In this document: positions 2,070 through 64,000 of the stretch, piece after piece
Layout: every line of letters starts with the position of its first letter
How positions within the stretch are numbered: the first letter of the stretch is position 1
Source of the DNA: a virus
Reading direction: 5' to 3' (one strand)
IMG/VR virus record: IMGVR_UViG_3300045988_149975
DNA length: 64,000 nt
Program-made: the position numbers and the translations under genes
The notes under the pieces: model-generated
Databases searched by the model: none
Told to the model about the DNA's origin: nothing
What the model saw: the letters and a program-made list of their open reading frames with translations, nothing else

Positions 2070-2477
2070 TTAATTCTCCTTATATTTCCTCAAAGTAATA
2101 GAAGTTTTACCATCTGAAAATACATATTCATCATAATTATTAGCAGTGTTCACAGAAATTAAAGGCAAATCAAAATCAATATCTCCCTCAATACAAACAT
2201 TATATTCTGCACCTAATATAAAGGGGTAAAGTGAATCAGCAGGTTCAATCCAATCTTCCTCAATATGCTTACAGTCTTGCCCATTCTCAAATTTAACTCT
2301 GTAAACAAATCTATCATCTTCATAGGCTGTAAATACTACTTCACCTATATCTCCCTTGTTTATTAAAGAATCTTTTACAAAGGTTTTACAAATTCTTACT
2401 TTATCACCATTGTCGAATTTACTTTCTTTAACGATTCTCATTCTTAAACAACTCCTTAAAAATATAATACAGTACAT
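2070..2477 (-). CDS. hypothetical protein
   Basis: 135-aa ORF. Confidence 0.5.
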   Translation of the reverse strand: MYCIIFLRSCLRMRIVKESKFDNGDKVRICKTFVKDSLINKGDIGEVVFTAYEDDRFVYRVKFENGQDCKHIEEDWIEPADSLYPFILGAEYNVCIEGDIDFDLPLISVNTANNYDEYVFSDGKTSITLRKYKEN

Positions 2478-4443
2478 CTACTACAATACTATTACCTGCC
2501 ATTTTATAAAGCTGTGTATTACTTATTCCTTTACATACTTCAATATCCCTATCCTCAAAGCCCATAAGCCTGAAGCACTCTTTAGGAGTAAGTTTACGGA
2601 TTCTATTCTCAATTTTGTAGAGTCCTGTTTTAGCACCTAATCCACCTGCTTCACCTTTAAGAGTAACAGATAAACCGTTTACATCATACACCACCCTTTT
2701 AGCCTGTGGCATACCGCTTGTAAGTTCTGTAAGCTGTGGAACTACAACACCTGTTGCAATTCTATCATCATTTTGTAAGAAATTTGCTTGTGAAGTTTTA
2801 TAATAATTAGCTTTAATAGTTCTACAAGTACCATCCTTTTCAGTACCATAGGGCGTAACAGATTTAAAATGTTTGATGTAATCTTTAACTTTATCATCTC
2901 GCATAAAGTATCTATCCTCTACCTCATTTTCAAGCACATCCTTTAGACTTTTAGTAAGTGGAAACGGCGCAGGAAAGTTAAAACCTTTATCAATATCTTT
3001 CCTAATAGATATTATAAATACTCTTTCTCTCCTTTGAGGTATTCCATAATCTGCGGCATTTAATACCTTCCAATAATTATTATACCCCATCTCACTTAAA
3101 CAGTCAAGTATATAATTAAATTCTTTTGTAAATTTTTTACCAGTGAGATTTTTAACATTCTCACATACTGCATATTTAGGTTTGACAGCATCGATAATCC
3201 TTAAAGCGTCAAACACTAATCCGCTACGAGTTTTTTCACCATTATATTCCAACCCCATTTTCTTACCACTTACAGAAATATCTTGACAATTATGCACTAT
3301 AATGTTATTGACAGTATATGAATTATCATTTTCAACTTCAAGATTGAATACCTCGATAGGCTTTTCAATCATTTCAATAGCTTTAATAGGTACTGCTATT
3401 TTATCTCCTATAACTAATTGATGCAATGCTCTATCAGAAAACTGCGCATTATAACAATCTTTAAAACTATCTTTTTGTCTATCTTTTCTAATACTTGTTG
3501 TAGGTACTACATTATAAAGTTTAATAACAATTCTACACAACTGTAAAAACATCTGCTCATTTATAGTGCTAAACATAAAAGTTGCTCTATCTTTTCTTCT
3601 ATGCCCATCACCACTCATATAACCATCGAAGAATTTAGATAACTGTTCTTTATTTAAAGACACAACCCAATCAGGAATTTTCTTAATACCTGCTCCACTA
3701 CCACAACTATGTATTACAGATTCTAATTTATCATCTATAATTCTGAAGTCAATACACGTTCTTTTACTATGTCCTTCATTATATCTGATATTAGTTAAAT
3801 GTTTTATAAATTCCTCTTTCTTACCTGAACCAATACAAAATATGGGACGTTTCTGATAAAGTTTTTCACAATAACCGTCTGCAAAATATCTACCAAAAAG
3901 CCATAGCCTATCATCATCTAAATCTGTATAGGCAGACTCTGTATTTATATTATAGGTAATGAAATCTGTAAGTTTTAGATCTTTAGCCTTAACCCAAACA
4001 AACTCTCCATCTCTATAAACATATAAAGGATGCTCATTAGTTAAATAAAGATTATAAGCCCCTACCCCTTTAATATGTCTAATACTATTAGAAATTCTTG
4101 ACATCGTTCTTAAAACTTTTTGATAATTATTTGTATGTGTAAGTACATAATCACCTACAATTATATCTTCAATATTTTTATAACCACACTGCACTTTAAT
4201 TTTTGTTCCAGCAGGAACACATGGAAATCCATAAGTTACTAAATCTACTCCAGGAAGTTCGCCTTCATTTACTTTAGTAATATCCCAAAGGTTTAAACTT
4301 TCAGGCACGTTATGGATTAAGGAATATGCTTTACTTGCATACTTATCTACTTCACAATAGTTGACAAGGGTATAATTAATTCCCAATCTTTCAAGGGCTT
4401 TTTCAAAAGCCCCTATACCTCTAAACAAACTTAATAATTTCAT
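2428..4443 (-). CDS. DNA (cytosine-5) methyltransferase interrupted by an intein
   Basis: C5-MTase motifs in order: I (FRGIGAF), IV GFP|C...HN|CQ (PCQ split by the intein), VI VCENVKN, VIII QRRERVFII, X GNSIVV. Without the 311-aa insert the exteins form a roughly 360-aa Dcm-type enzyme. Confidence 0.85.
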   Translation of the reverse strand: MKLLSLFRGIGAFEKALERLGINYTLVNYCEVDKYASKAYSLIHNVPESLNLWDITKVNEGELPGVDLVTYGFPCVPAGTKIKVQCGYKNIEDIIVGDYVLTHTNNYQKVLRTMSRISNSIRHIKGVGAYNLYLTNEHPLYVYRDGEFVWVKAKDLKLTDFITYNINTESAYTDLDDDRLWLFGRYFADGYCEKLYQKRPIFCIGSGKKEEFIKHLTNIRYNEGHSKRTCIDFRIIDDKLESVIHSCGSGAGIKKIPDWVVSLNKEQLSKFFDGYMSGDGHRRKDRATFMFSTINEQMFLQLCRIVIKLYNVVPTTSIRKDRQKDSFKDCYNAQFSDRALHQLVIGDKIAVPIKAIEMIEKPIEVFNLEVENDNSYTVNNIIVHNCQDISVSGKKMGLEYNGEKTRSGLVFDALRIIDAVKPKYAVCENVKNLTGKKFTKEFNYILDCLSEMGYNNYWKVLNAADYGIPQRRERVFIISIRKDIDKGFNFPAPFPLTKSLKDVLENEVEDRYFMRDDKVKDYIKHFKSVTPYGTEKDGTCRTIKANYYKTSQANFLQNDDRIATGVVVPQLTELTSGMPQAKRVVYDVNGLSVTLKGEAGGLGAKTGLYKIENRIRKLTPKECFRLMGFEDRDIEVCKGISNTQLYKMAGNSIVVDVLYYIFKELFKNENR
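3289..4221 (-). mobile_element. intein with LAGLIDADG homing-endonuclease domain inside the C5-MTase
   Basis: Starts with Cys immediately after GFP (residue 75) and ends VHN followed by Cys+1 (residues 384..386). Two LAGLIDADG-like motifs (LFGRYFADGY and FFDGYMSGDG). Splicing would restore GFPCQDIS. Confidence 0.75.
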
Positions 4444-13868: not shown

Positions 13869-14375
13869 TTATTTGACAGGACAAGTGCTTGCTGCATTTA
13901 ATTTTACCTCCAAGTCTGTTAAGTTATCAACAGAACTATCATCTAAATAAACGTGGGCAAATACTTTTCTTGCTCTTAAATTTTCTATCCACCATTTCAT
14001 ACCGTCAGGGAACATTTCTTTTATACGCTCCAAATCATCATTAACAGCGTCAAACTCTAATCCCAACTTTTTACAATAAGAAACTGCCTCATCTAAACTC
14101 TTACCACACCTGCAAGTCCAAAGGATTAATTCGTTCCCTGCTTCTTTTAATTCTATGAGTTTTTCTATTACACATCTACCGCTTTTATCTTCTTTAAGAT
14201 AGCCAATATTCGGAAAAGCATTTTCTACGATAGTTCCATCAAAATCTACTGCTATAATCATTTTATACTCCTTATAAAATAGTGCGCCAAAAGGCGCACC
14301 ATAATTAACATTTACTATAGCCACAATTATTACAATAAGCACACTTACCATCAGGAATAAGAGTATACTCACCAC
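13869..14375 (-). CDS. HAD-superfamily hydrolase (nucleotidase-like)
   Basis: DxDxT motif IIAVDFDGTIV near the start of the soluble part, after an N-terminal hydrophobic segment. Overlaps the 3' end of the RNR gene. Confidence 0.5.
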   Translation of the reverse strand: MVSILLFLMVSVLIVIIVAIVNVNYGAPFGALFYKEYKMIIAVDFDGTIVENAFPNIGYLKEDKSGRCVIEKLIELKEAGNELILWTCRCGKSLDEAVSYCKKLGLEFDAVNDDLERIKEMFPDGMKWWIENLRARKVFAHVYLDDSSVDNLTDLEVKLNAASTCPVK

Positions 14376-17184
14376 ATTCAGGGCATTTCATTTTGCCATT
14401 ATGAATATCATCCTTTACCTCATGAATAGCTTTCTGCGTTTCCTCTGTAAGTGCTTTTTCAAAAGTATTTTTAGCATCCTCTATAGCTGTCTTATTTTCT
14501 TGCAAGTCTTTATAAATATCTCTAATTGCACTTGCAATACAAGAAGCGCAAGATTTAGAAATATCTTTTCTACCGCTACGCATTAAATAACTACAAGCAG
14601 GACAGTTAGCGTTGCTTAACTCATCAGCAATATCTAATGCTTTACCACCAAGCCTTAAAGCATAGCTTGTAAGTCTTGCAATAGTAGAAATATTAGCTTG
14701 ACAGCCTGTTTCTGCACCTACAAAAACCTCAAAAATGTGATTATCTTTTACATTTACTGTTACATAAAAATTTCTTACACAAGCTGTATGGTAAACAAAA
14801 GTGCGCCCCCAAAGGGATTTCACTCCATTACGTTTAACAGGCTCAAGATTATCTAACTGTCTTGCTTGCATATCATCTACTGTAACAGGTTCTTTAATAA
14901 TCTCAACTTTTGGCACATGATTTTTAACTTCTTTATTCTCTACATCAGCACGTTTTACACCATGGTCAGTACCAAGGATATTAATGCGTTTGCAGTTATC
15001 ACGAAAAATAGTAATACCCTTACAACCATTTGACCATGCCTGCAAATAAAGGTTAAAAATATCATCTACAGTTGCACTCTCTTTAAGATTAATAGTAGAA
15101 GAAATTGCATTATCTACATAAGACTGCATAGTAGATTGTAAATCAACCCTATCCTTGGGGTCAATATCATAAGTATCTACAATATAAGGAAACTTTTCTT
15201 TAATCTGTTCAGCAGTAAGTTCATTGGGATTATAACCTCTAAATTTTAAAAGATTTTCCACTGCAAGCATATTAATATGGAAAGATTTACCTTCTTTTTC
15301 AAGAACATGAGTAGTTCTATCATAAGACACTTGATAGTATGGTTCTACACCACCACTTTCTCTAAAGAGCATTGAAATTGAACCGGTAGGTGCAATACTC
15401 AATAAAGTGCCATTACGCATATTTTGAGATAAATCCTTTGCCACTCTTGAAGTAAATCTGTACTGAATATCATGTACCATACCACTTTTATCAAATTTTT
15501 CTTTGTCAAATTTACCAAAACTACCCTTTTCTGCCCCTAATTTTGCAGAAGTGGCATAGGCAGTAGTCTGCATATTGCGCATAATAGATGCTATAAGTTC
15601 AATACTTTTTTGACTGCCATATTTAATACCCATTGCTACAAACATATCTGCCATACCAAATATGCCTAAACCAATGCTACGCCAATCATCAATACATTTC
15701 CTATTCTTATCTAAAGGTTGAAGTTCATAACCATAATCAAGAATTTCATCTAATGCGGTTACAGCATTTTTAACTGTATCACAGAATCGCTCCATATTGA
15801 AATGCGCCGTATCAGTATAAGGATTATCTACGAAGTTATAAAGATTAATACTACCTAAATTACAAGCATTATACTCTGAACCTGCAAATTCACCACAATT
15901 CCCTGTCAAAACACCATTGGCAATGAAGGTATGATTTTTAGGCTCATTCATACAATAAACAGTATCAACTACTTCTGCTTCTTCGATAGCTACAACGCTA
16001 ATTTTAGGGCAGGCATAAGCTGTTACAATAAAATCAAGGTCATTATTAAAAACAGGATGTTTATACCAATCTAAAGTGTCACCAACTTTTAAATCTTTAG
16101 CTTCAACTCTGCCGACATCCCTCAATACCCATTTATGGTAAGGGGTACACTGAACAGTAGCACCATTAGAGAATTTAATCTTTAAAGTCTTTTGGTCATG
16201 CCCTGTTACTTTAGGAGTAACTTTGCTCCACTCATAACCATTCCAAACTTCTACCTCTTTACCTGCTAATTCCCCAATAGGTTTATACCCCTTTTTAGTA
16301 AGAATAAGGGTATCACCAGTTACACAAGGGTTTGTAGTATCAATCCTATATTCATTAATAGGATAGCCACTCAATAAGTTACATTCTCTTACATTATCAA
16401 TAAATAATGCCCCAGGCTCTCCCCAATCATACTGCGCTTCACAAAATTTCCTAAAGAAATCTCTTGCATTAATTTCTTTTTTAACCTCTTCACCATTTTC
16501 TTCATTTTTAAAGTGCAACTCAAAATTCTCATTACTAATTACACTTGTCATAAAATCATCAGTGAAACATATAGAAATGTTCGCACCCTGAATTTTATCA
16601 TTATTCTGTTTAATAGTTAAAAATTCTTCAATATCAGGATGGTCACAATTCAAGGAAATCAGAATTGCTGCCCTTCTTCCGTTATTTCCAATAACTTCAC
16701 CAATTACATTATAGACATCCATGAAGGAAACTGCACCGCTTGAAGTCTTTGCAGAATTATTAACTTTAGCACCCTTTGGGCGAAGGTTACTCAAATTAAT
16801 ACCTGCTCCACCGCCAAAGCTAAAAATTCTTGCCATTTCCTTACCTACATCAAAAATAGATTCAATGTTATCTTTAGGTGAGGGAAGAATATAACAATTA
16901 CTTGTTGTGGCTCTAAATTTTCCTTTACAACCTGCTGCATAAAGTGTTCTGCCCGCAGGTAAGAAAGTACCATCTATAATACTCTCTACCATAAAATCTT
17001 GTAATTCTTTTGTAGAAAAAATACTTGATACTCTTTTAATGAAAGCATTAAATCCTGCATCAAAACCTTCCTGTTCTACAATTTTTAACTCGTCATCGTG
17101 CATATATTTTTTCTTTATAATATTTTGCGGAATTTCATCATCCCACCATACTTTATACATATTTACATTACTAATTCTACCCAA
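14305..17184 (-). CDS. nrdJ: ribonucleotide reductase (class II NrdJ-like) interrupted by a mini-intein
   Basis: Active-site motif TTNP|C...N|CGEF, which restores NPCGE on splicing. C-terminal zinc ribbon CPECGEYTLIPDGKCAYCNNCG. 959 aa including a 143-aa insert. Confidence 0.7.
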   Translation of the reverse strand: MGRISNVNMYKVWWDDEIPQNIIKKKYMHDDELKIVEQEGFDAGFNAFIKRVSSIFSTKELQDFMVESIIDGTFLPAGRTLYAAGCKGKFRATTSNCYILPSPKDNIESIFDVGKEMARIFSFGGGAGINLSNLRPKGAKVNNSAKTSSGAVSFMDVYNVIGEVIGNNGRRAAILISLNCDHPDIEEFLTIKQNNDKIQGANISICFTDDFMTSVISNENFELHFKNEENGEEVKKEINARDFFRKFCEAQYDWGEPGALFIDNVRECNLLSGYPINEYRIDTTNPCVTGDTLILTKKGYKPIGELAGKEVEVWNGYEWSKVTPKVTGHDQKTLKIKFSNGATVQCTPYHKWVLRDVGRVEAKDLKVGDTLDWYKHPVFNNDLDFIVTAYACPKISVVAIEEAEVVDTVYCMNEPKNHTFIANGVLTGNCGEFAGSEYNACNLGSINLYNFVDNPYTDTAHFNMERFCDTVKNAVTALDEILDYGYELQPLDKNRKCIDDWRSIGLGIFGMADMFVAMGIKYGSQKSIELIASIMRNMQTTAYATSAKLGAEKGSFGKFDKEKFDKSGMVHDIQYRFTSRVAKDLSQNMRNGTLLSIAPTGSISMLFRESGGVEPYYQVSYDRTTHVLEKEGKSFHINMLAVENLLKFRGYNPNELTAEQIKEKFPYIVDTYDIDPKDRVDLQSTMQSYVDNAISSTINLKESATVDDIFNLYLQAWSNGCKGITIFRDNCKRINILGTDHGVKRADVENKEVKNHVPKVEIIKEPVTVDDMQARQLDNLEPVKRNGVKSLWGRTFVYHTACVRNFYVTVNVKDNHIFEVFVGAETGCQANISTIARLTSYALRLGGKALDIADELSNANCPACSYLMRSGRKDISKSCASCIASAIRDIYKDLQENKTAIEDAKNTFEKALTEETQKAIHEVKDDIHNGKMKCPECGEYTLIPDGKCAYCNNCGYSKC
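15898..16326 (-). mobile_element. mini-intein (no endonuclease domain) at the RNR active-site Cys
   Basis: Begins CVTGDTLIL (block A) at residue 287 and ends ...FIANGVLTGN followed by Cys+1 at residue 430. Penultimate residue is Gly, not His. 143 aa. Confidence 0.65.
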
Positions 17185-27598: not shown

Positions 27599-28387
27599 CT
27601 ATTCATATAAACTATAATTTCTCTTTGGATAAATTTCCAAATTACTAAACATTACTTTTAATTCATTTTCATTACAATCTTGTATATCTTTTTTACCATC
27701 AGGAAATCTACAACGCATAAAAGTAAAATCATTCTTTAAATACTTATAAATTCTTTTACAACCATCTTCTCCTGCCTTATCATTATCTAAAGCTAAAATA
27801 ATTTTATCCGCTTTAAACATTTTAAGTTTTTCAATTTGTGTCTTACTAATTTGAGCAGATATAATGGAAAGAGTATTAGTATAACCAAATCTATATAACC
27901 AAATTGCATCTAATAAACCCTCCACTAAAATAATCTCATCTTTAGGTTCAAATAAGTTCATGGGGTAGAAATAATCTTTAGCATTAAAATGATTATAAAT
28001 CTTATATTTAGGCTCATTACCATAAATAGAATTATAACCTCTATCCTTTTCGGATAATACTGCCCTACTACTAAACCCTAAAAGATTACCACTATAATCA
28101 AAAAAGGGAATTGTAATACGTTTTAATTCACCATCCCAACCTAATTTAAACTTAACAAAATCTTCCTCACTAAAACCTCTCTTTAATAAATAAGGATGTA
28201 CAATTTCTCCACTTTTAAAAGGCGCAAGCGCACTCATAGACAATACATCTTCTTTAATCTCATCGGATTCTTCGTATAGATTTCTATGTCTACTTACAGC
28301 CATTCTAAAATCTTTATTAAAGTAACTGTTAAGAAATTCATAAGCGTCCATAATTGAAATATCTTTTACAAACGCTACTAAAGACAC
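27599..28387 (-). CDS. DNA primase, TOPRIM domain (DnaG-like); its zinc finger lies upstream in another frame
   Basis: TOPRIM motifs EIILVEGLLD and ILALDNDKAGEDG. The ORF starts at a GTG; the remainder of the zinc finger lies upstream in the same frame with no start codon, and the frameshifted CHC2 N-terminus lies further upstream (next feature). Confidence 0.7.
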   Translation of the reverse strand: MSLVAFVKDISIMDAYEFLNSYFNKDFRMAVSRHRNLYEESDEIKEDVLSMSALAPFKSGEIVHPYLLKRGFSEEDFVKFKLGWDGELKRITIPFFDYSGNLLGFSSRAVLSEKDRGYNSIYGNEPKYKIYNHFNAKDYFYPMNLFEPKDEIILVEGLLDAIWLYRFGYTNTLSIISAQISKTQIEKLKMFKADKIILALDNDKAGEDGCKRIYKYLKNDFTFMRCRFPDGKKDIQDCNENELKVMFSNLEIYPKRNYSLYE

Positions 28388-28463
28388 TAAATTGAATTTT
28401 GCACCACAAGCAAAACAACCACCTACCTCTTTCTCTGCATGAATACCACAAGAGGGATTACGT

Positions 28464-28553
28464 TCACCATGATAGATAAGGACAGCAAAACATAATATTT
28501 TCGCCCCTAACTGTTACTTTTTCAAGCCCCAGTTCATTGCAAAAATTCTTCAT
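28464..28553 (-). pseudogene. N-terminal zinc-finger fragment of the primase, out of frame because of a 4-bp tandem duplication
   Basis: MKNFCNELGLEKVTVRGENIMFCCPY in one frame. The rest of the CHC2 finger, (Y)HGERNPSCGIHAEKEVGGCFACG, runs in the +1 frame into the TOPRIM ORF. The junction reads TATCTATC (plus 28471..28478 gatagata); deleting one TATC gives CCPYHGE. Confidence 0.6.
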
Positions 28554-28564
28554 TTCATCTACTG

Positions 28565-29155
28565 TCACATAACCACCTCCTGTTTTATTCTAAAAAATAC
28601 TTTTACGCCATCAATTACAGAACATCCTCTGTTACTACTAATAGTATGCCCTCTTATCATAGCGTGTACTATTGACTTATCTTTATTAGGAAATAAGGTA
28701 CGAGAAGCAGCCTTACTGCTCTTAAAAGTAGCTAATACCTCATTACTTTCCACAGAAACCATCTCAACTGGTTTTTCAAATAACCTATGTAACTTTTTAG
28801 CGGATATTCTTGCTTTCTCACGAACATTCTCTCTTAAACCGATATTCCACGAATGTAATAAATTATCTTTGTTTTCTATCCACTCTAAATTTTCAACATG
28901 GTTATTTAATTTATTACCGTCTTTATGATTTACTTGTGGTAAATTTTCGGGGTTAGGTATAAATGCTTCTGCTACTAAACGATGTACCCTTTTAGGATAA
29001 CACTTACCATCTTTAGCTAATGCTACCTGTAAATAACCCTTTGTAGTTGTGTTTGCCATCAAACACCTCTCTTTATTATACTTATGAGATATTACTACCC
29101 CTTCATCTGTAACAGTATAATCAGGAAAATCTTTTACAATAGCTTCTATAAGCAT
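28565..29155 (-). CDS. HNH homing endonuclease (free-standing)
   Basis: GYLQVAL...VHRLVAEAFIPNPENLPQVNHKDGNKLNNHVENLEW (HNH_3). Close paralogue of 63128..63658. Confidence 0.8.
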   Translation of the reverse strand: MLIEAIVKDFPDYTVTDEGVVISHKYNKERCLMANTTTKGYLQVALAKDGKCYPKRVHRLVAEAFIPNPENLPQVNHKDGNKLNNHVENLEWIENKDNLLHSWNIGLRENVREKARISAKKLHRLFEKPVEMVSVESNEVLATFKSSKAASRTLFPNKDKSIVHAMIRGHTISSNRGCSVIDGVKVFFRIKQEVVM

Positions 29156-29176
29156 TTCACCTCCATTACTTCATAT

Positions 29177-29205
29177 ATTATATCATAAAATTACCAATTT
29201 GTCAA
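29177..29205 (-). promoter_or_regulatory. consensus sigma-70 promoter driving the HNH gene
   Basis: Minus strand TTGACA (29200..29205), 17-nt spacer, TATAAT (29177..29182), then RBS GGAGGTG and ATG. Confidence 0.5.
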
Positions 29206-30449
29206 GATAATTTTTTCAAAGTTTGTGGTTTATCTACCTTAAATGTTCGCTCTTTCTTATCATCAAAATTTGCATAGACTACATCATAATTCATTTCCCT
29301 AAAATCAAATTGCATTGTAAATTTTGGTGTCCATTCACCATCACGAATTTTAAGAGTTTGAATTTCAACCTCTTTAGCTGCCCTCTGTACTTCATCCTGT
29401 AACATTGCCCACATTCCATCACAATACTGTTTAAGACTTGTAGCATAAGCAATATTACCCTTATCAGTAAGCTGTGTAGTAGTAATAATGGGTATTTTCC
29501 TGTTTAAAGCAATAATTTTAAATGCCTTAAATACTGCTAATACTGCTTTCCAATCTTCAGGGTCTTTACCCTCACTCATAAGATAACCACCATCTATTAA
29601 AACTATATCAGGTTTATAGGCATCTATTTTAGCTGCGCACTCTGCTACACCGTTTATAATAAGTTCAATGCTTAATTTAGAAGCATACTTTGGCGCAATA
29701 TTTTCAAGATAATCTTTATAAATACTTTCTTCATCATTAGTTAAAGCACCATCTTTTAAACGGCTATAACTTACACCACTCATTATAGCATCCACCCTTT
29801 TTAATATTTGATGTGGACTCATTTCCTTTGTAAGAAAAAGTGTCTTATAACCTGCTTTAATTAAATTAGAAGCTATAATACATAACAAAAAAGTTTTACC
29901 TACACCTGACTTTGCAAGGAATGATATTAAATCTACCTCTTTTATGCCACCAGTTTGTTTATCAAGAGGGTAAATCCCAAGGGGTATACCTGTCATACCT
30001 CCTGTAGCTTTATTTACTAAATAATCTTGAAAACGCTTCTCTGTATTTGCCCCTAAATCAACTTTTTCAGTAAAGGTAAAATCACTATTTACTTCTGAAA
30101 TTAAACTCTCCAAAAGGGTATAACATTTATCTACATCCCTATCATTTATAAGATTATCTATCTTTTCTAAAGTAGTTACTAACTTATTATGCCTAATCTT
30201 ACGGCGCAGTTCATCACAATAATAACCTACTGTTTCAGGACTTTCAATGTTAAGATTGACTTCAGGAAAATGCTTTTTAAAAGTTTCCTTATCAGGCAAT
30301 TCACCATACTTAACTTTAAAATCAGATAACCACTTAAAAGCCCTTTTATTTGCACCTGAAAAATAGTCAGCAGTTATATCTTTGTTAAGTACAGTTTCCC
30401 ATTCTTTTGTTTCAATAAGTTTTCTTAAAAAAGAATTTTCTACTGACAT
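29202..30449 (-). CDS. DnaB-like replicative helicase
   Basis: Walker A LAKSGVGKTFLL in a DnaB C-terminal-domain context (GIPLGIYPLDKQTGG). 415 aa. Confidence 0.75.
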   Translation of the reverse strand: MSVENSFLRKLIETKEWETVLNKDITADYFSGANKRAFKWLSDFKVKYGELPDKETFKKHFPEVNLNIESPETVGYYCDELRRKIRHNKLVTTLEKIDNLINDRDVDKCYTLLESLISEVNSDFTFTEKVDLGANTEKRFQDYLVNKATGGMTGIPLGIYPLDKQTGGIKEVDLISFLAKSGVGKTFLLCIIASNLIKAGYKTLFLTKEMSPHQILKRVDAIMSGVSYSRLKDGALTNDEESIYKDYLENIAPKYASKLSIELIINGVAECAAKIDAYKPDIVLIDGGYLMSEGKDPEDWKAVLAVFKAFKIIALNRKIPIITTTQLTDKGNIAYATSLKQYCDGMWAMLQDEVQRAAKEVEIQTLKIRDGEWTPKFTMQFDFREMNYDVVYANFDDKKERTFKVDKPQTLKKLS

Positions 30450-37261: not shown

Positions 37262-38551
37262 TTATGCCCCTAATTTTTCCACAATCTCATCTTTTGTAAA
37301 ACCAAGGTTTTTATAAAGACTCCGTGGATTTTCTACATATTCGTATTTTAAAATGGTAGTCTTACCATTTTCTTCCATTGTTTCATATTTAACTGTATCT
37401 GTATTCTTGCCTGCTTTTTCTACCTCACCTGCATAAATCCAAATATAATCATCAAATAATAGATTACCCCATAAAGGCTTCCAAACTTCCTCGTTGAAAT
37501 TTTCTGCCATATAATAGTAATCCTCTTTAGAACTTAATACTTTTGGTATACCTCTCATTAATAACTCAATCCTTTCTTTAACAGAATCTAATTTTATACT
37601 TTTACGAAAATTATAGGTATTTGCCCACTTCATCCAACCTTCTATACTGGCTACCATACCTCTTGCATAGTCCAAATCTAAATCAGCAGTCTTTAATAGA
37701 CTATCCAATTTTCTAAACCTGCGTTTTATCCTTTTTGCTGTACTCTTTCTTAATAAAACACAGTTGTTAGGAAATGTCCTATAACCAAGAAAGTCTACAC
37801 CTTGCGTTATAGGAAATACATTACTTTTACTTAATAACAGGTTTAACTTATCATAAGCAAATACCTTCGCTTTTTCAGCTACCTCATGTAACTCCTTCTT
37901 ATCATTACCGAAAATTATAAAATCATCACAATACCTTATATATGCACTACATTTTAAATCATACTTTATATAAGTGTCTAATTCATTCATGTATAGATTA
38001 CCAAACCACTGTGAAAGATAATTTCCAATAGGTACGCCCGCCTTTCTATGACCAAATTCCTCTACATATCTTTCAAGTTTTCCACGCATTATATCAGCAT
38101 CTTTACGCCCTTCAAAATTCTTCAAATAACCTATATTAGCTTCTCTTGTTGCAAGGCTATCTATTATTATATCAAGAATACTTAATAAATCTTTATCTTT
38201 AATCTTTTTACGCAATATTATTTTCAATATTTCATGGTCAATATTTACATAAAATTGTGAAATATCAAGTTTAGCACAATACTTATACTTTCTTACATAT
38301 TCAGAGCATTTTATCATTCCCTTATGCTGCCCCTTACCTTTACGACAAGCATAACTATCATATATAAATAAACTATCCCAAATAGGCTCTAACACATTCA
38401 TTATAGCATGATGTACTATTCTATCAGGATAATATGGAAGTACATAAATTAAACGCAATTTAGGCTCATACATTGAATAAATCCTATAAACGGAGTTCTT
38501 ATAATTTCCATCCATTAAATCTTTTTGTAATGATAATAGGTTAGCTTCCAA
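37262..38551 (-). CDS. reverse transcriptase of a diversity-generating retroelement
   Basis: RT motifs in order: RIYSMYEPKLRLIYVLPYYPDRIVHHAIMNVLEP (1/2), LDISQFYVNIDH (A), KAGVPIGNYLSQWFGNLYMNELD (B'), YIRYCDDFIIFG (YxDD). 429 aa. Lies 3' of a TR/VR pair. Confidence 0.8.
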   Translation of the reverse strand: MEANLLSLQKDLMDGNYKNSVYRIYSMYEPKLRLIYVLPYYPDRIVHHAIMNVLEPIWDSLFIYDSYACRKGKGQHKGMIKCSEYVRKYKYCAKLDISQFYVNIDHEILKIILRKKIKDKDLLSILDIIIDSLATREANIGYLKNFEGRKDADIMRGKLERYVEEFGHRKAGVPIGNYLSQWFGNLYMNELDTYIKYDLKCSAYIRYCDDFIIFGNDKKELHEVAEKAKVFAYDKLNLLLSKSNVFPITQGVDFLGYRTFPNNCVLLRKSTAKRIKRRFRKLDSLLKTADLDLDYARGMVASIEGWMKWANTYNFRKSIKLDSVKERIELLMRGIPKVLSSKEDYYYMAENFNEEVWKPLWGNLLFDDYIWIYAGEVEKAGKNTDTVKYETMEENGKTTILKYEYVENPRSLYKNLGFTKDEIVEKLGA

Positions 38552-60771: not shown

Positions 60772-61388
60772 TATTCATTAAATGTAGCTGTCGCAACTGA
60801 TAATGTTAAAGTTACATTATCATTCGTTTTAAGCTGTACAGTTACAGCCCTTGCAGTTGTAGAATCTGCACCTAAAAATACAACAGCAGTTTTATCAGAA
60901 TCATCTATAGTACGCCATTCTTGTAAACGTGAGGAGTACATTTGAATCGAAGTAGAACCTTTAGGTAATTCTACTGTAAATGGTAAATAATAACCATTCT
61001 GTTCATCTTCTTTACTACTAAAATCTGTCCAACCTGTTATTTTTTTAAATGTACCAGTTACTACACCTGTTTCACCATATACAGGACTCTCTACTAAATC
61101 AGAAGTATTCTTTCCTAATAATGTAATAGTAGGTGCTTTAACTACAATTTTCCTTTCTACTGGCGGCTCACTACCACCATCAACTGCTTTTACAAAAGCA
61201 CTACTACCTGCTTCAGCATAAAATACTTGTGAGGGTTTAACGCCTAATTTTGTGGCTACTTTATAAGGGTCTTGCTCCATATAAAACACCTCATTTGCTG
61301 TTACATTTTTACCTAATGCTTTTGCTAACTTTTGTGGAGATTGTTTTGCGTACAGTACATCATTTGCTGTTATACTCATGTTCAACAC
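60771..61388 (-). CDS. Ig-like-domain structural protein (possible head decoration)
   Basis: 205 aa, paralogous motif with 57494..57889. Confidence 0.4.
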   Translation of the reverse strand: MLNMSITANDVLYAKQSPQKLAKALGKNVTANEVFYMEQDPYKVATKLGVKPSQVFYAEAGSSAFVKAVDGGSEPPVERKIVVKAPTITLLGKNTSDLVESPVYGETGVVTGTFKKITGWTDFSSKEDEQNGYYLPFTVELPKGSTSIQMYSSRLQEWRTIDDSDKTAVVFLGADSTTARAVTVQLKTNDNVTLTLSVATATFNE

Positions 61389-61406
61389 TCCTAAATATAA
61401 ATGGAA

Positions 61407-61426
61407 GGGAAACCTAACGGTTTCCC
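61407..61426 (-). terminator. hairpin downstream of the capsid-like exon
   Basis: 8-bp stem GGGAAACC/GGTTTCCC with a 4-nt loop. The U-tract is modest. Confidence 0.3.
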
Positions 61427-61435
61427 TAAAATTAA

Positions 61436-61771
61436 TTACGCAGTTTCAATTATTACGCCATGTGTAGGATTAAGAACTGCTGTACCCCAAATGCCATACC
61501 AAGCAATCTTAACTTCACGCCCAAAATCTTCAGTATCATCTGTACGAATTTCAGGGGCTAAAGATTCTGCAAGTGCATAATAATCTTCGCCAAAGATTAC
61601 TGCCTGATATACGTTAGCACTGGAAGCACCTGCGGCTTTAAGTTCTGCTACATAGCCTAAATCGCTTTCAGCAGCAGCACCATTAGGCATAATGGTTGTT
61701 TCAATAAAACGAACATCGTCAATTCTACCGATTTCCAATCTGTTACTATGGGCGGTAAATACCCATTTCAC
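61436..61771 (-). CDS. probable 3' exon of a capsid-like structural gene
   Basis: Starts with GTG immediately after an in-frame stop, directly 3' of a group I intron core ending ...GUAAG. 111 aa ending AVLNPTHGVIIETA. Confidence 0.4.
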   Translation of the reverse strand: MKWVFTAHSNRLEIGRIDDVRFIETTIMPNGAAAESDLGYVAELKAAGASSANVYQAVIFGEDYYALAESLAPEIRTDDTEDFGREVKIAWYGIWGTAVLNPTHGVIIETA

Positions 61772-62975
61772 TTACTTTATGTAAGCGGGGGCGTACTTCT
61801 ATGAGTGTCTTTACACTCGACTGCCCCTCTTATGTTCACACATAAGGTCTGACTATCTCTTTACCCCTTTCTTATGTTCGAGGTATCTCGTGTATAGTCG
61901 ATAGACTTTTTTCAGATAATTTATAACTCATTGATTTTGGTATAAATTCTTTTATGTAGTCGCAAAACTTTGTAAAACTTTTTGAAGGTATTCTTATCAT
62001 CGGATAACCACATTCAAGCTGAACATAGGTTTCAATTTTAATAATTTCATTTAAAGAATTGCTCAATAACTGACACTCCTCAATAGTAAAACAACAAGTT
62101 GCTATCTTACCCCAATTTCCTTTACCTTTACTACCATCATCTGCATACCATATAGCGATTGATAAAGGATTGAGCATTTCCTTAATGTTATTAGGAATAA
62201 TCTTTGTTTTACCTTTATAGAACATTTCCCTTAACTGTTTTATATCTCCAAAGGCTTTTGTCCTTTTCCTAACCGATTGATAACCTTCTTTAGTTTTTCT
62301 ATAATAACTACTGCTTATATCATTGCCAAAGAAACTTGCCTTATAGTTTAAGTAATCTTCTTGTTTAAGCGAATGACTTAAATAAAGTACCCTTCCATCA
62401 AGATAACCGTCACCTAAAATGCTACCAATTACAACACTTCTTTGATTATCTGTTAAGTGCTTATAATCACTTTGTACAGCAGATATGCCATAATGTGTTA
62501 GCCATTTTGTAACTGTACTATTCTTTACATTAAACTTTTCGCCGACATCTTTCTTCCTACCACCATTTTGAAAAACCTCTAATATCTCCTCTTTCGGTGG
62601 TATATAAGCAAAATGTTCAAAAGTTCCTAACTTATACTCTTTAACAAGTCTTTTTATAACTTTTAAACTTACACTAAAATGTTTTGCAACTAATTTCTGA
62701 CTTTTTAAGTCATTATATACTTTTTGTAAATCTTCTTTTGCAATATAAATCTTTTTCATTATAAATTACCTTCCTTTAGTACGGTATTACCCCTCTGGGG
62801 TTCACTTTCTATATACATAGTATTATAGGCTTTTTAAAGCCAACCGTTTAGCGAGATGCTTTGTACTTGTTTTTATTCAAGCACAACGGCAAAATCTACC
62901 GTTAAATAACTGTTCAGGCGCACCATAGTTGCTCGCATTACAGCACTATTACTTTCACCCACTATGGTAAGGGTT
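61772..62975 (-). mobile_element. group I intron (B) carrying a LAGLIDADG ORF; boundaries approximate
   Basis: Minus-strand RNA 61930..61800 contains R-like CGACUAUAC, a P8 hairpin, S-like GAGAUAGUC (P7 GACUA/UAGUC) and a P9 hairpin CCUUAUGUGUGAACAUAAGAGGGG. 54-nt block 61808..61861 repeated at 63018..63072. Confidence 0.5.
61872..62759 (-). CDS. LAGLIDADG homing endonuclease (intron-encoded)
   Basis: Two LAGLIDADG motifs (IGSILGDGYLDG and IAIWYADDGSKG). 295 aa. Confidence 0.75.
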   Translation of the reverse strand: MKKIYIAKEDLQKVYNDLKSQKLVAKHFSVSLKVIKRLVKEYKLGTFEHFAYIPPKEEILEVFQNGGRKKDVGEKFNVKNSTVTKWLTHYGISAVQSDYKHLTDNQRSVVIGSILGDGYLDGRVLYLSHSLKQEDYLNYKASFFGNDISSSYYRKTKEGYQSVRKRTKAFGDIKQLREMFYKGKTKIIPNNIKEMLNPLSIAIWYADDGSKGKGNWGKIATCCFTIEECQLLSNSLNEIIKIETYVQLECGYPMIRIPSKSFTKFCDYIKEFIPKSMSYKLSEKSLSTIHEIPRT

Positions 62976-62979
62976 ACTG

Positions 62980-63795
62980 ACTAATATCTCTATTAGCGGG
63001 GCAACTGCTTCTCTAAAGTGTCTTTACACTTGAGTCACCCTCTTATGGTTTCCCATAAGGTTAGACTATCTCATCCCCCGATTTTTTACATCGGGGGCTT
63101 CGTCCATAGTCGTTGCAAGGGTATCAATTAAACATATTCAAACCTATACGTTCCTAATAATACATTATTTCTTAACAATGCAGAAGTTATTGATGGGTAT
63201 TTAAGATTGAGTTTCTCTGACGCTTCTCTCGTACTATTAAACTCAAACTTTTCTCCTGTTTTTATATTCTCACATTTAATTTTGCGACTTCTATGTTTTA
63301 TACCATTTTCTCTCGCCGCTTTGCTATGTGCTTCTGTCATAACATTTATCAGACCATGTGCATAAGCGTGTCTAATATTATAACTTGAATCACACCATTC
63401 TAAATTCTCAACGTGGTTATTTAACTTGTTACCATCTATATGATTTACTTGCGGTAAATTATCAGGGTTAGGTATAAAATTCATTGCTACAAGCCTATGA
63501 ATTTTCTTTGAATGTTTACCATCCTTATCATATAAGTTTACATATAAATAACCGCCTTTGTTGACAGTTTGAACTAAAAACTTTTGTGTAAATGTGGAAT
63601 ATACCCTTCCATCATCATAAATATAATAATTTTCAAAACCTTTAATTTTTCGTTTCACTTACGTTACTCCTCTCTTTATGTTTAATCTTAACCTTCTCAC
63701 AGGATTGGCATGACTTTTCAGTTTTAGCTTTCCCTGTTTTCACGAAGTTTAATCGAGTACATTACTGTACAAGTGGACTAATGCTAATGGCTTTA
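62980..63795 (-). mobile_element. group I intron (A) carrying an HNH ORF; boundaries approximate
   Basis: Minus RNA 5' part has P4/Q-like ACAGGGAAAGCU...AAUCCUGUG (63700..63660). 3' part (63127..63010) has R CAACGACUAUGG, P8 CCCCCGAUGUAAAAAAUCGGGGG, S GAUGAGAUAGUCUAACC and P9 CCUUAUGGGAAACCAUAAGAGGG. Confidence 0.5.
63128..63658 (-). CDS. HNH homing endonuclease with NUMOD4-like N-terminus (intron-encoded)
   Basis: GFENYYIYDDGRVYS (NUMOD4-like) plus HRLVAMNFIPNPDNLPQVNHIDGNKLNNHVENLEW. GTG start after RBS GAGAGGAG. Paralogue of 28565..29155. Confidence 0.8.
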   Translation of the reverse strand: MKRKIKGFENYYIYDDGRVYSTFTQKFLVQTVNKGGYLYVNLYDKDGKHSKKIHRLVAMNFIPNPDNLPQVNHIDGNKLNNHVENLEWCDSSYNIRHAYAHGLINVMTEAHSKAARENGIKHRSRKIKCENIKTGEKFEFNSTREASEKLNLKYPSITSALLRNNVLLGTYRFEYV

Positions 63796-64000
63796 TGCCA
63801 CTCTTTCAATCCATTCAGGGCAATCTCTCAAATCACGGCTCTGATGAGGATGAACAAATGCGATATAATAACTACCATCAATTTTCGGTGCATTATTAGT
63901 AGAAAGAATTTCTACTGCATCTTTAATAGTAGCTACTGTAAGGGTATTTACACCTGCTGCTAATTGATTACGCTGTGTAACTTTAGCACCGTCTTTCTGT
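63796..64000 (-). CDS. 3' part of a capsid-like structural gene (5' exon, partial)
   Basis: Reverse complement reads ...KIDGSYYIAFVHPHQSRDLRDCPEWIERVA* and stays open to the window edge. The stop is immediately followed by intron-like sequence. Confidence 0.35.

Follow-up and report, generated by a model that had tools for sequence, protein, structure and literature searches.

Near one end of a 64,000-nt stretch of viral DNA (the window; IMG/VR record IMGVR_UViG_3300045988_149975), two open reading frames (ORFs) for putative homing endonucleases separate pieces of a capsid-like coding sequence, and the question was whether these pieces belong to one gene interrupted by introns or to a set of separate genes. 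All genes of the window are on the minus strand, as are the features of the locus described here, and in the order of that strand the region holds a run-in ORF ending in ..DCPEWIERVA and a stop codon, an ORF of 176 aa, an ORF of 295 aa and a GTG-started ORF of 111 aa (61771..61436). A preliminary description of the DNA had proposed that a capsid-like gene was split here by two homologous group I introns, each carrying a different homing endonuclease, and had placed the element at 61772-63795. Our sequence analysis makes it highly probable that the locus is a minus-strand gene for a major capsid protein (MCP) of the N4-gp56 family, split by two related, presumably mobile group I introns of one lineage that each contain a different homing endonuclease gene. 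The location given earlier was right but the span was too narrow, with the introns found at 63808..62941 and 62897..61736 and splice sites outside it.

Searches with both flanking coding pieces led to MCPs of the N4-gp56 family, including the intron-less protein P0001 (291 aa), which carries both Pfam domains PF13252 and PF25209, and many of the other matches were named N4-gp56 family MCP. The peptide NASNYGAPEQLFNG was present in P0001 and missing from the flanking ORFs of the window; it was found to be encoded at 62940..62898, between the endonuclease ORFs, where a short middle exon had been suspected. When the sequence up to 63809 was joined to 62940..62898 and 61735..61436, the frame was open and aligned with zero gaps at the DNA level to the P0001 gene (L001), so that the comparison with an intron-less homologue, suggested earlier as a check, gave a gapless splice in silico. 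Because the joined exons aligned without gaps, intron 1 was assigned to 63808..62941 and intron 2 to 62897..61736. The second junction was unambiguous, and the first, which could move by one base, was fixed by the terminal-G rule. The junctions thus placed join UGGAU to UAAUGC (..GAAUGGAU to UAAUGCGAGC..) and AACGGU to GAAAUC (..UUUAACGGU to GAAAUCGGU..), and the predicted spliced peptide spanning the exons is ..EWINASNYGAPEQLFNGEIGR.. The product was 86% identical to P0001 over 100% of its length, in agreement with the proposed split capsid gene, and the predicted splicing takes 2030 nt, both introns together, out of the DNA sequence.

Exon 1 (63809..64000), placed by translation and by alignment to the intron-less P0001/L001, is partial, as the start of the gene lies past the end of the window; the exon ends in ...CCUGAAUGGAU, with the terminal U opposite a G of the intron guide. 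Exon 2 (62898..62940) is 43 nt long, which is no multiple of three, and encodes (I)NASNYGAPEQLFNG. It lacks both a start codon and a ribosome-binding site and cannot be expressed alone, and its protein sequence was kept in every mapped capsid locus. Exon 3 (61436..61735) encodes EIGRIDDVRF...VIIETA and includes the stop codon. The two flanking ORFs had been taken as the 5' and 3' exons, and both are indeed capsid coding, but not to their ends: the last four codons of the run-in ORF (..ERVA and the stop) are read-through into intron 1, and the first 12 codons of the GTG-started ORF (61771..61736) are the non-coding 3' end of intron 2, which makes the GTG at 61771 a spurious start. On the unspliced pieces, Pfam gave a weak match for the exon 1 fragment (E 0.09) and no match to a capsid family for isolated exon 3. 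The nearest MCP of an isolate was that of Bacillus phage BCD7 (53%), and the nearest MCP relatives in genomes, at most 69% identical, were in metagenome-assembled genomes of Clostridia; the phage lineage that carries the window is uncultivated. Six database proteins (P0004, P0005, P0006, P0101, P0120, and P0042) were recognized as truncated capsid artefacts of unrecognised introns, which start inside intron 2 (MKWVFTAHSN..) or end in read-through (..WIDFCA, ..FNGRFCLCA, ..DDVRLTV).

The last base of each intron is G, and the U at the end of each 5' exon faces a G of the guide. Intron 1, at insertion site B (62941..63808, 868 nt, omega G at 62941), has its internal guide at 63774..63784, consisting of GCAUUA (63784..63779) for P10 and GUCCA (63778..63774) for P1. 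In P1, GUCCA pairs with UGGAU of the 5' exon and forms a U.G pair at the splice site; this pairing was invariant in 11 sequences. In P10, GCAUUA, directly 5' of the P1 guide, forms 6 bp with UAAUGC of the 3' exon, and a compensatory variant, GCGUUA/UAACGC, was present in contigs L097 and L115. Intron 2, at site C (61736..62897, 1162 nt, terminal G at 61736), has its guide at 62885..62896, where GCCGUU (62890..62885) pairs with AACGGU of the 5' exon in P1 and GAUUUU (62896..62891), again directly 5' of the P1 guide, forms 6 bp with GAAAUC of the 3' exon in P10. Among the relatives of intron 2, four exon/guide combinations of P1 were found (AACGGU/GCCGUU, AAUGGU/GCCAUU, AGCGGU/GCCGCU, and AGUGGU/GCCACU), in which two positions co-vary. 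Guides that track changes in the exons in this way would be hard to explain unless the RNAs splice.

A group I core was placed in both introns, consisting of P2, a long-range P3 across the ORF, P4-P6, P7 pseudoknotted with P3, P8, and P9 with a GNRA loop, and followed by a common peripheral domain of P9.1, P9.1a, P9.2, and P9.3. In intron 1, the helices of the 5' half lie at 63699..63770 and comprise P2 (63770..63757), the P3 5' strand (63747..63742), and P4-P5-P4' (63737..63699), in which the ACAGGG/CCUGU pair recognized earlier was recovered at 63737..63732 and 63703..63699. P6 pairs AAGG (63695..63692) with CCUU (63120..63117), and P6a pairs AUUAAAC (63686..63680) with GUUUAAU (63133..63127). 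The 3' half of the core (63042..63111) holds the P7 5' strand (63111..63106), the P3 3' strand (63103..63098), P8 (63097..63075), the P7 3' strand (63069..63064), and P9 with a GAAA loop (63059..63042); the peripheral domain (62941..63041) contains P9.1, P9.1a (63030..63017), P9.2, P9.3, and a GUAAUAG..G tail. In intron 2, the 5' helices (62781..62884) are P2 (62884..62863), the P3 5' strand (62857..62852), and P4 (62847..62843 with 62785..62781), and two extra hairpins stand between P4 and P5 (62800..62790). The long-range P6 is an 11-bp inverted repeat (62770..62760 with 61925..61915) that encloses the ORF and includes its start region. The 3' half (61829..61899) consists of P7 (61899..61894 with 61856..61851), the P3 3' strand (61890..61885), P8 (61884..61863), and P9 with a GUGA loop (61846..61829), and is followed by the peripheral domain (61736..61828) with P9.1, P9.1a (61817..61804), P9.2, P9.3, and a GUAACAG..G tail.

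The sequence elements first noticed by eye were found in both introns, the R-like CGACUAU at 63112..63106 and 61900..61894 and the S-like GAGAUAGUC at 63072..63064 and 61859..61851, with P8 and P9 hairpins following the R/S-like elements. The repeat that had been described as 54 nt was present but longer, 70 nt at 77% identity (61804-61873 vs 63017-63086). The proposed homology of the introns held for the P7-P9.3 domain, which showed 64% identity, the same helices and an identical P9.1a hairpin, but not to the same degree for the 5' domains, which were only 46% alike and differed by the two extra hairpins of intron 2.

Relatives of the introns were collected from contigs of the protein clusters, from IMG/VR, and from one metagenome scan, and two alignments were made, one per intron type, each of 11 distinct sequences from which the ORF loops were cut out and in which short flanks of exon were retained. 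For the intron 1 type, 65 pairs in 13 helices were standard pairs in 99.7% of the cells and 19 pairs were changed on both sides; for the intron 2 type, the values were 83 pairs, 15 helices, 97.9%, and 28 pairs, and the long-range P3 was compensated at five of its six pairs. When the partners were slid by 1-3 columns as a control, changes on both sides fell to 1-4 for the intron 1 type and 0-4 for the intron 2 type, far below the observed counts, which chance does not account for. None of 500 shuffles matched the observed covariation for either type, a control that overstates the significance because several of the 11 sequences in each alignment are closely related, so that sliding the partners and counting the distinct compensated pairs are safer guides.

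Several observations weigh against the reading of these RNAs as group I introns that restore a capsid gene. No Intron_gpI (RF00028) match was found by Rfam at the gathering score in the whole window, nor by a permissive scan of 61300-64000, and the 5' half of intron 2 had no Rfam match even when searched separately. The best full-length score for an ORF-less relative was 33.2 bits, below the gathering score of 50. The inserted hairpin pair makes the P4-P5 region of intron 2 atypical, P1 has two mismatches (AAUGGU/GCCUGU) in 4 of the 11 intron 2 relatives, where the efficiency of splicing may be variable, and the gene extends at its 5' end beyond the window. The gathering score, however, is the curator's detection threshold and not a structural definition, and the scan of the whole window was blank because the ORFs, of 530-890 nt, split the model. 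Each half-intron was therefore cut at the ORF and searched as a truncated match. In these searches, Intron_gpI was matched by the 3' half of intron 1 (23.4 bits, E 2.9e-4), the 3' half of intron 2 (22.3 bits, E 5.9e-4), and the 5' half of intron 1 (19.6 bits, E 0.003). It ranked first in these three half-intron searches out of four, each of which gave one other, insignificant match (E 1.3, 0.67, and 6.9). The two extra P4-P5 hairpins may explain the missing match of the intron 2 5' half. Additionally, an intron of the second type that naturally lacks the ORF (360 nt, contig L094) gave a full-length match to Intron_gpI at those 33.2 bits, with an E value of 4e-5.

A core-domain model specific to this family (R1) scored 90.7 and 88.1 bits at the two introns of the window, values that are high by construction since both copies were in the training alignment, and at most 14 bits elsewhere in the window. 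Run across the whole window with filters off, R1 revealed no further intron of this family, the best other match being 14 bits. An alignment that included two Streptococcus phage introns was dropped, as it was misaligned through their P7.1/P7.2-type insert. The Rfam check proposed in the preliminary description gave no match at the gathering score on the window and matches below that score, at E 3e-4 to 3e-3, on three half-introns. A default scan of the whole window, used alone, would have wrongly rejected the introns on the absence of a covariance match. That two group I introns are present, as first proposed, is supported by the gapless splice in silico, the U and omega-G splice sites, the P1/P10 guides, the covariation of the cores and the half matches obtained without the ORF.

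Both endonuclease ORFs were intact, with plausible ribosome-binding sites, and their families agreed with those first assigned. The HNH ORF of intron 1 (63128..63658), which loops out of P6/P6a, encodes 176 aa and has a GTG start and a GAGGAG ribosome-binding site. It matched the Pfam families HNH_3 (30.2 bits) and NUMOD4 (30.4 bits) above their cut-offs and I-HmuI_NUMOD-like more weakly, and residues 4-175 of its 176 matched I-HmuI (PDB 1U3E) at E 7e-16. I-HmuI belongs to the DNA polymerase intron of SPO1 and is a nicking enzyme; by analogy the intron 1 enzyme probably nicks one strand. The LAGLIDADG ORF of intron 2 (61872..62759, 295 aa), enclosed by the long-range P6, matched LAGLIDADG_2 (PF03161) over profile positions 1-168 of 168 (E 1.5e-31, 110 bits). 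It also matched I-SceI (PDB 1R7M; E 2.6e-14) over nearly the whole chain, residues 28-226 of 235, and about 100 extra N-terminal residues carry helix-turn-helix matches. By analogy to I-SceI, this putative monomeric LAGLIDADG enzyme probably makes a double-strand break. The 3' end of the ORF overlaps P6', P7, P3', and P8, and its start region lies inside P6, which may limit translation from the folded RNA. Separately, a second HNH_3/NUMOD4 gene was observed at 28565-29155 (minus strand; context 27599-30449), 39% identical to the intron 1 enzyme, with a near-consensus TTGACA-N17-TATAAT promoter-like site upstream. It was considered as a third intron and rejected, as the gene (29155..28565) is free-standing, flanked by a DnaB-like helicase gene on one side and a Toprim primase gene on the other, with no ribozyme core around it.

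How the introns are distributed was examined by mapping the capsid exons; in one such mapping, 72 loci had a single full-length match without an intron, 11 were split and 1 was partial. Over all the loci collected, four insertion sites were found within 37 codons (111 bp), at MCP residues 213-250. Site A lies between VHP and HQS (residues 213/214), site B between EWI and NAS (226/227), site C between FNG and EIG (240/241), and site D between DVRF and IETT (residue about 250). Site B is that of window intron 1 with its HNH ORF, site C is that of window intron 2, and introns at A, C, and D carry LAGLIDADG_2 ORFs that were mutually 26-29% identical. All four types had the same core sequence, with ends that follow the U / G rule. 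In the site D introns, the LAGLIDADG ORF was preceded by a promoter-like TTGACA..TATAAT. The capsid gene had from none to three introns per copy: A alone in L012, B alone in L014, C alone in L003, D alone in L004, L018, L019, and L021, A and C in L013, A and D in L082, B and C in the window, L002, L097, L111, and L119, and A, B, and C in L092-L094 and L101, which are contigs of IMG/VR 3300045988. The segment with the four sites was among the most conserved of the protein (mean majority frequency 0.905 vs 0.70 overall; rank 4 of 302 windows of 38 residues), and highly conserved segments are the usual target choice of homing endonucleases.

ORF-less copies were found at the same sites as ORF-bearing ones and in both intron types, with lengths of 309-311 nt for type B and 314-360 nt for type C; natural examples were among L094 (6531-6890, minus strand), L111, L113, L117, L119, and L120. 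One ORF-less type C copy retained a 10-codon remnant, the start of the LAGLIDADG ORF fused to its C-terminal end, which suggests deletion of the endonuclease gene. Contig L111 was 95-97% identical to the window on both sides and had 50 nt in place of window positions 62799..61900, which correspond to the LAGLIDADG ORF and P5-P6.

From the gene structure and its exact junctions, the covarying RNA pairings, the endonuclease families and the presence-absence polymorphism of introns and ORFs, all shown by the sequences compared, a mechanism can be proposed. The late capsid operon would be transcribed through, with the MCP gene as one pre-mRNA, and each intron would fold into a group I core (P1-P10) with the P3/P7 pseudoknot. 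In P1, the guide would pair with the last bases of the upstream exon and place a U.G pair at the point of cleavage, and in P10 it would pair with the first bases of the downstream exon. Attack of guanosine at the U.G pair of P1 and transesterification, as read from the sequence, would free RNAs of 868 nt and 1162 nt, and ligation of the exons guided by P10 would give a continuous MCP reading frame for translation. The endonucleases would be made from the intron RNAs. In a mixed infection they would be expected to cut intron-less capsid genes, whose repair would copy the intron in (homing), if their activity and specificity are those of the families to which they belong.

One objection is that the capsid gene is dead or fragmented, with the endonuclease genes as free-standing cassettes, the flanking RNA as a relic that does not splice, and the phage either defective or equipped with another capsid gene. 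The window does hold a free-standing HNH gene elsewhere, the Rfam scores are below threshold, and splicing is predicted here from sequence. A dead gene, however, would not be expected to show three exons that keep the frame and encode a product 86% identical to an intact homologue, or a 43-nt exon whose protein sequence is conserved in every locus. The guides follow synonymous as well as non-synonymous changes of the exons, which is sensible only with P1 and P10 under selection, and 47 pairs over both intron types were compensated. The same arrangement also recurs in many long phage contigs (30-100 kb), and we consider decay of the gene very unlikely. Removal of the insertions at the protein level as inteins, which the intein-like Hint domains in two other genes of the genome might suggest, or their being group II introns, has next to no probability. 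Stop codons end the exon frame five codons into intron 1, several more stand before exons 2 and 3, and Pfam gave no Hint or intein family for either intron ORF. Neither a reverse transcriptase/maturase ORF in the introns nor a match to a group II family in the Rfam scans was found, and the RNA has the P3/P7 pseudoknot, the splice-site U.G, and the terminal G of group I. Both the intein and the group II readings were rejected on these grounds, namely the stops, the lack of Hint or maturase and the group I core.

A less drastic alternative is that only one of the introns is autonomous while the other needs a host or phage factor or its endonuclease as a maturase, or that the two are sometimes removed together with exon 2, which is then skipped to give a frameshifted product. 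LAGLIDADG proteins can be maturases in organellar introns, intron 2 has an atypical P4-P5 and a 5' half without an Rfam match, and the 43 nt of exon 2 are no multiple of three. Arguing the other way, the intron 2 type is maintained without its ORF in some copies of an essential gene, which speaks against a strict need for a maturase in cis, and in each intron the P1 and P10 guides that match its flanking exons are complete. Dependence on a factor or skipping of the exon is therefore regarded as improbable, though less so than a dead gene, and the interpretation retained is that of a capsid gene whose two group I introns are both predicted to splice.

Under this interpretation of two splicing introns, a further and rather speculative idea, which we think more likely wrong than right, is that one intron lineage spread to the four adjacent sites, swapped its endonuclease cargo (HNH vs three LAGLIDADG lineages), lost it repeatedly, and now forms a cluster that would be more than passive selfish DNA and may act as a system of competition between phages. 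If this were true, the stacked endonucleases could cut the capsid gene of a co-infecting relative (marker exclusion), and the 43-nt micro-exon would make capsid output depend on the ordered splicing of two introns. Marker exclusion has been demonstrated for the intron endonuclease of PhiPA3 (PMC11620839). In the output of gene callers, the capsid gene falls apart into a shortened ORF, two 'endonuclease genes' and an ORF with a false GTG start, and default Rfam scanning misses ORF-bearing phage introns completely, while ORF-less forms score below the threshold. The natural series of capsid genes that differ in intron number (none to three) and in the presence of endonuclease ORFs, among phages that are 95-97% identical, is useful for studying homing, the gain and loss of endonucleases, and the co-evolution of guides and exons.

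Other parts of the window contained further elements of this kind, so that the genome is rich in splicing and homing elements, with two introns, the free-standing HNH gene and two intein-like Hint domains. One Hint domain lies inside a C5 DNA methylase (2428-4443, minus strand; Intein_splicing 43 bits, residues about 74-385) and the other in the large subunit of a ribonucleotide reductase (14305-17184, minus strand; residues 294-427), where its 35.1 bits are just below the cut-off. Next to the free-standing HNH gene, a primase zinc-ribbon motif (CPYYHGERNPSCGIH) at about 28440-28567 (minus strand) does not share the frame of the apparent start, a GTG at 28567; the one-base frameshift near 28475 could be an assembly error, a pseudogene or recoding. 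An ORF at 37262-38551 (minus strand) with a reverse transcriptase domain (RVT_1, 4.6e-16) adjoins the tail and tail-fibre gene block and may be part of a diversity-generating retroelement.

A megablast of the region against INPHARED phages gave no nucleotide match. Among the closest known systems are ORF-less introns in terL of Streptococcus thermophilus phages (e.g. SW13) and in the portal gene of the S. suis phage phiJH1301-1, which are unannotated gaps in late structural or packaging genes annotated as split. Their J8/7, P7 3' strand, and P9 are about 90% identical to those of the window, and the shared block reads GAGAUAGUCU..CUUAUGGGAAACCAUAAG. Unlike the window introns, they reach the gathering score of Intron_gpI (50.1 and 58.6 bits) and have no ORF, whereas the window introns carry ORFs and a large P9.1-P9.3 domain. 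They also contain an insert of about 90 nt of the P7.1/P7.2 type between P7 and P3' (L005 and L006), where the window introns have 2-3 nt. Extra P7.1/P7.2 helices at this position are a feature of subgroup IA2, which includes T4 td and the Streptococcus phage introns, and the assignment of the window introns to IA2 was rejected because they lack P7.1/P7.2 and have just these 2-3 nt.

In its overall design, intron 1 resembles the I-HmuI / I-BasI-type introns in the DNA polymerase genes of Bacillus phages SPO1, SP82, and Bastille, which are likewise group I introns of Firmicutes-type phages, lie in a gene that is essential and conserved, and have an HNH ORF looped out of the ribozyme core. It differs from them in its host gene, which is that of the MCP and not of DNA polymerase, and nicking by the HNH enzyme here is proposed by analogy. 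Introns in capsid genes are known from the Cluster J mycobacteriophage LittleE, in which the intron carries a LAGLIDADG-related endonuclease and splicing was shown by reverse transcription PCR and N-terminal sequencing, and from the lactococcal phage Tuc2009 (PMC3706429). As in the window, the intron is in the major capsid gene, the exon ends in U and the intron in G; LittleE and Tuc2009, however, have one intron per gene and unrelated capsid families, whereas the window has two introns 43 nt apart and its relatives up to three. A group I intron was also reported in terL of Bacillus phage Silence (PMC4599081), and gut jumbo phages hold thousands of introns, partly validated by metatranscriptomes (PMC12880540). 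Several related group I introns in one phage gene, with short exons between them, are found in Twort, for which a gene with three group I introns was shown to splice (Landthaler and Shub 1999, as cited in PMC6669764). The phage, the gene and the intron sequences are different, and splicing in the window is predicted from sequence where that in Twort was demonstrated. Group I introns in late and structural genes of phages are thus already established, and the mechanism proposed for the window is a textbook one, that of an ordinary and well-documented class of selfish element. Particular to this case are the spacing of two related introns by only 43 nt, their endonucleases of different families, the hot spot of four insertion sites, and Rfam scores below the gathering threshold.

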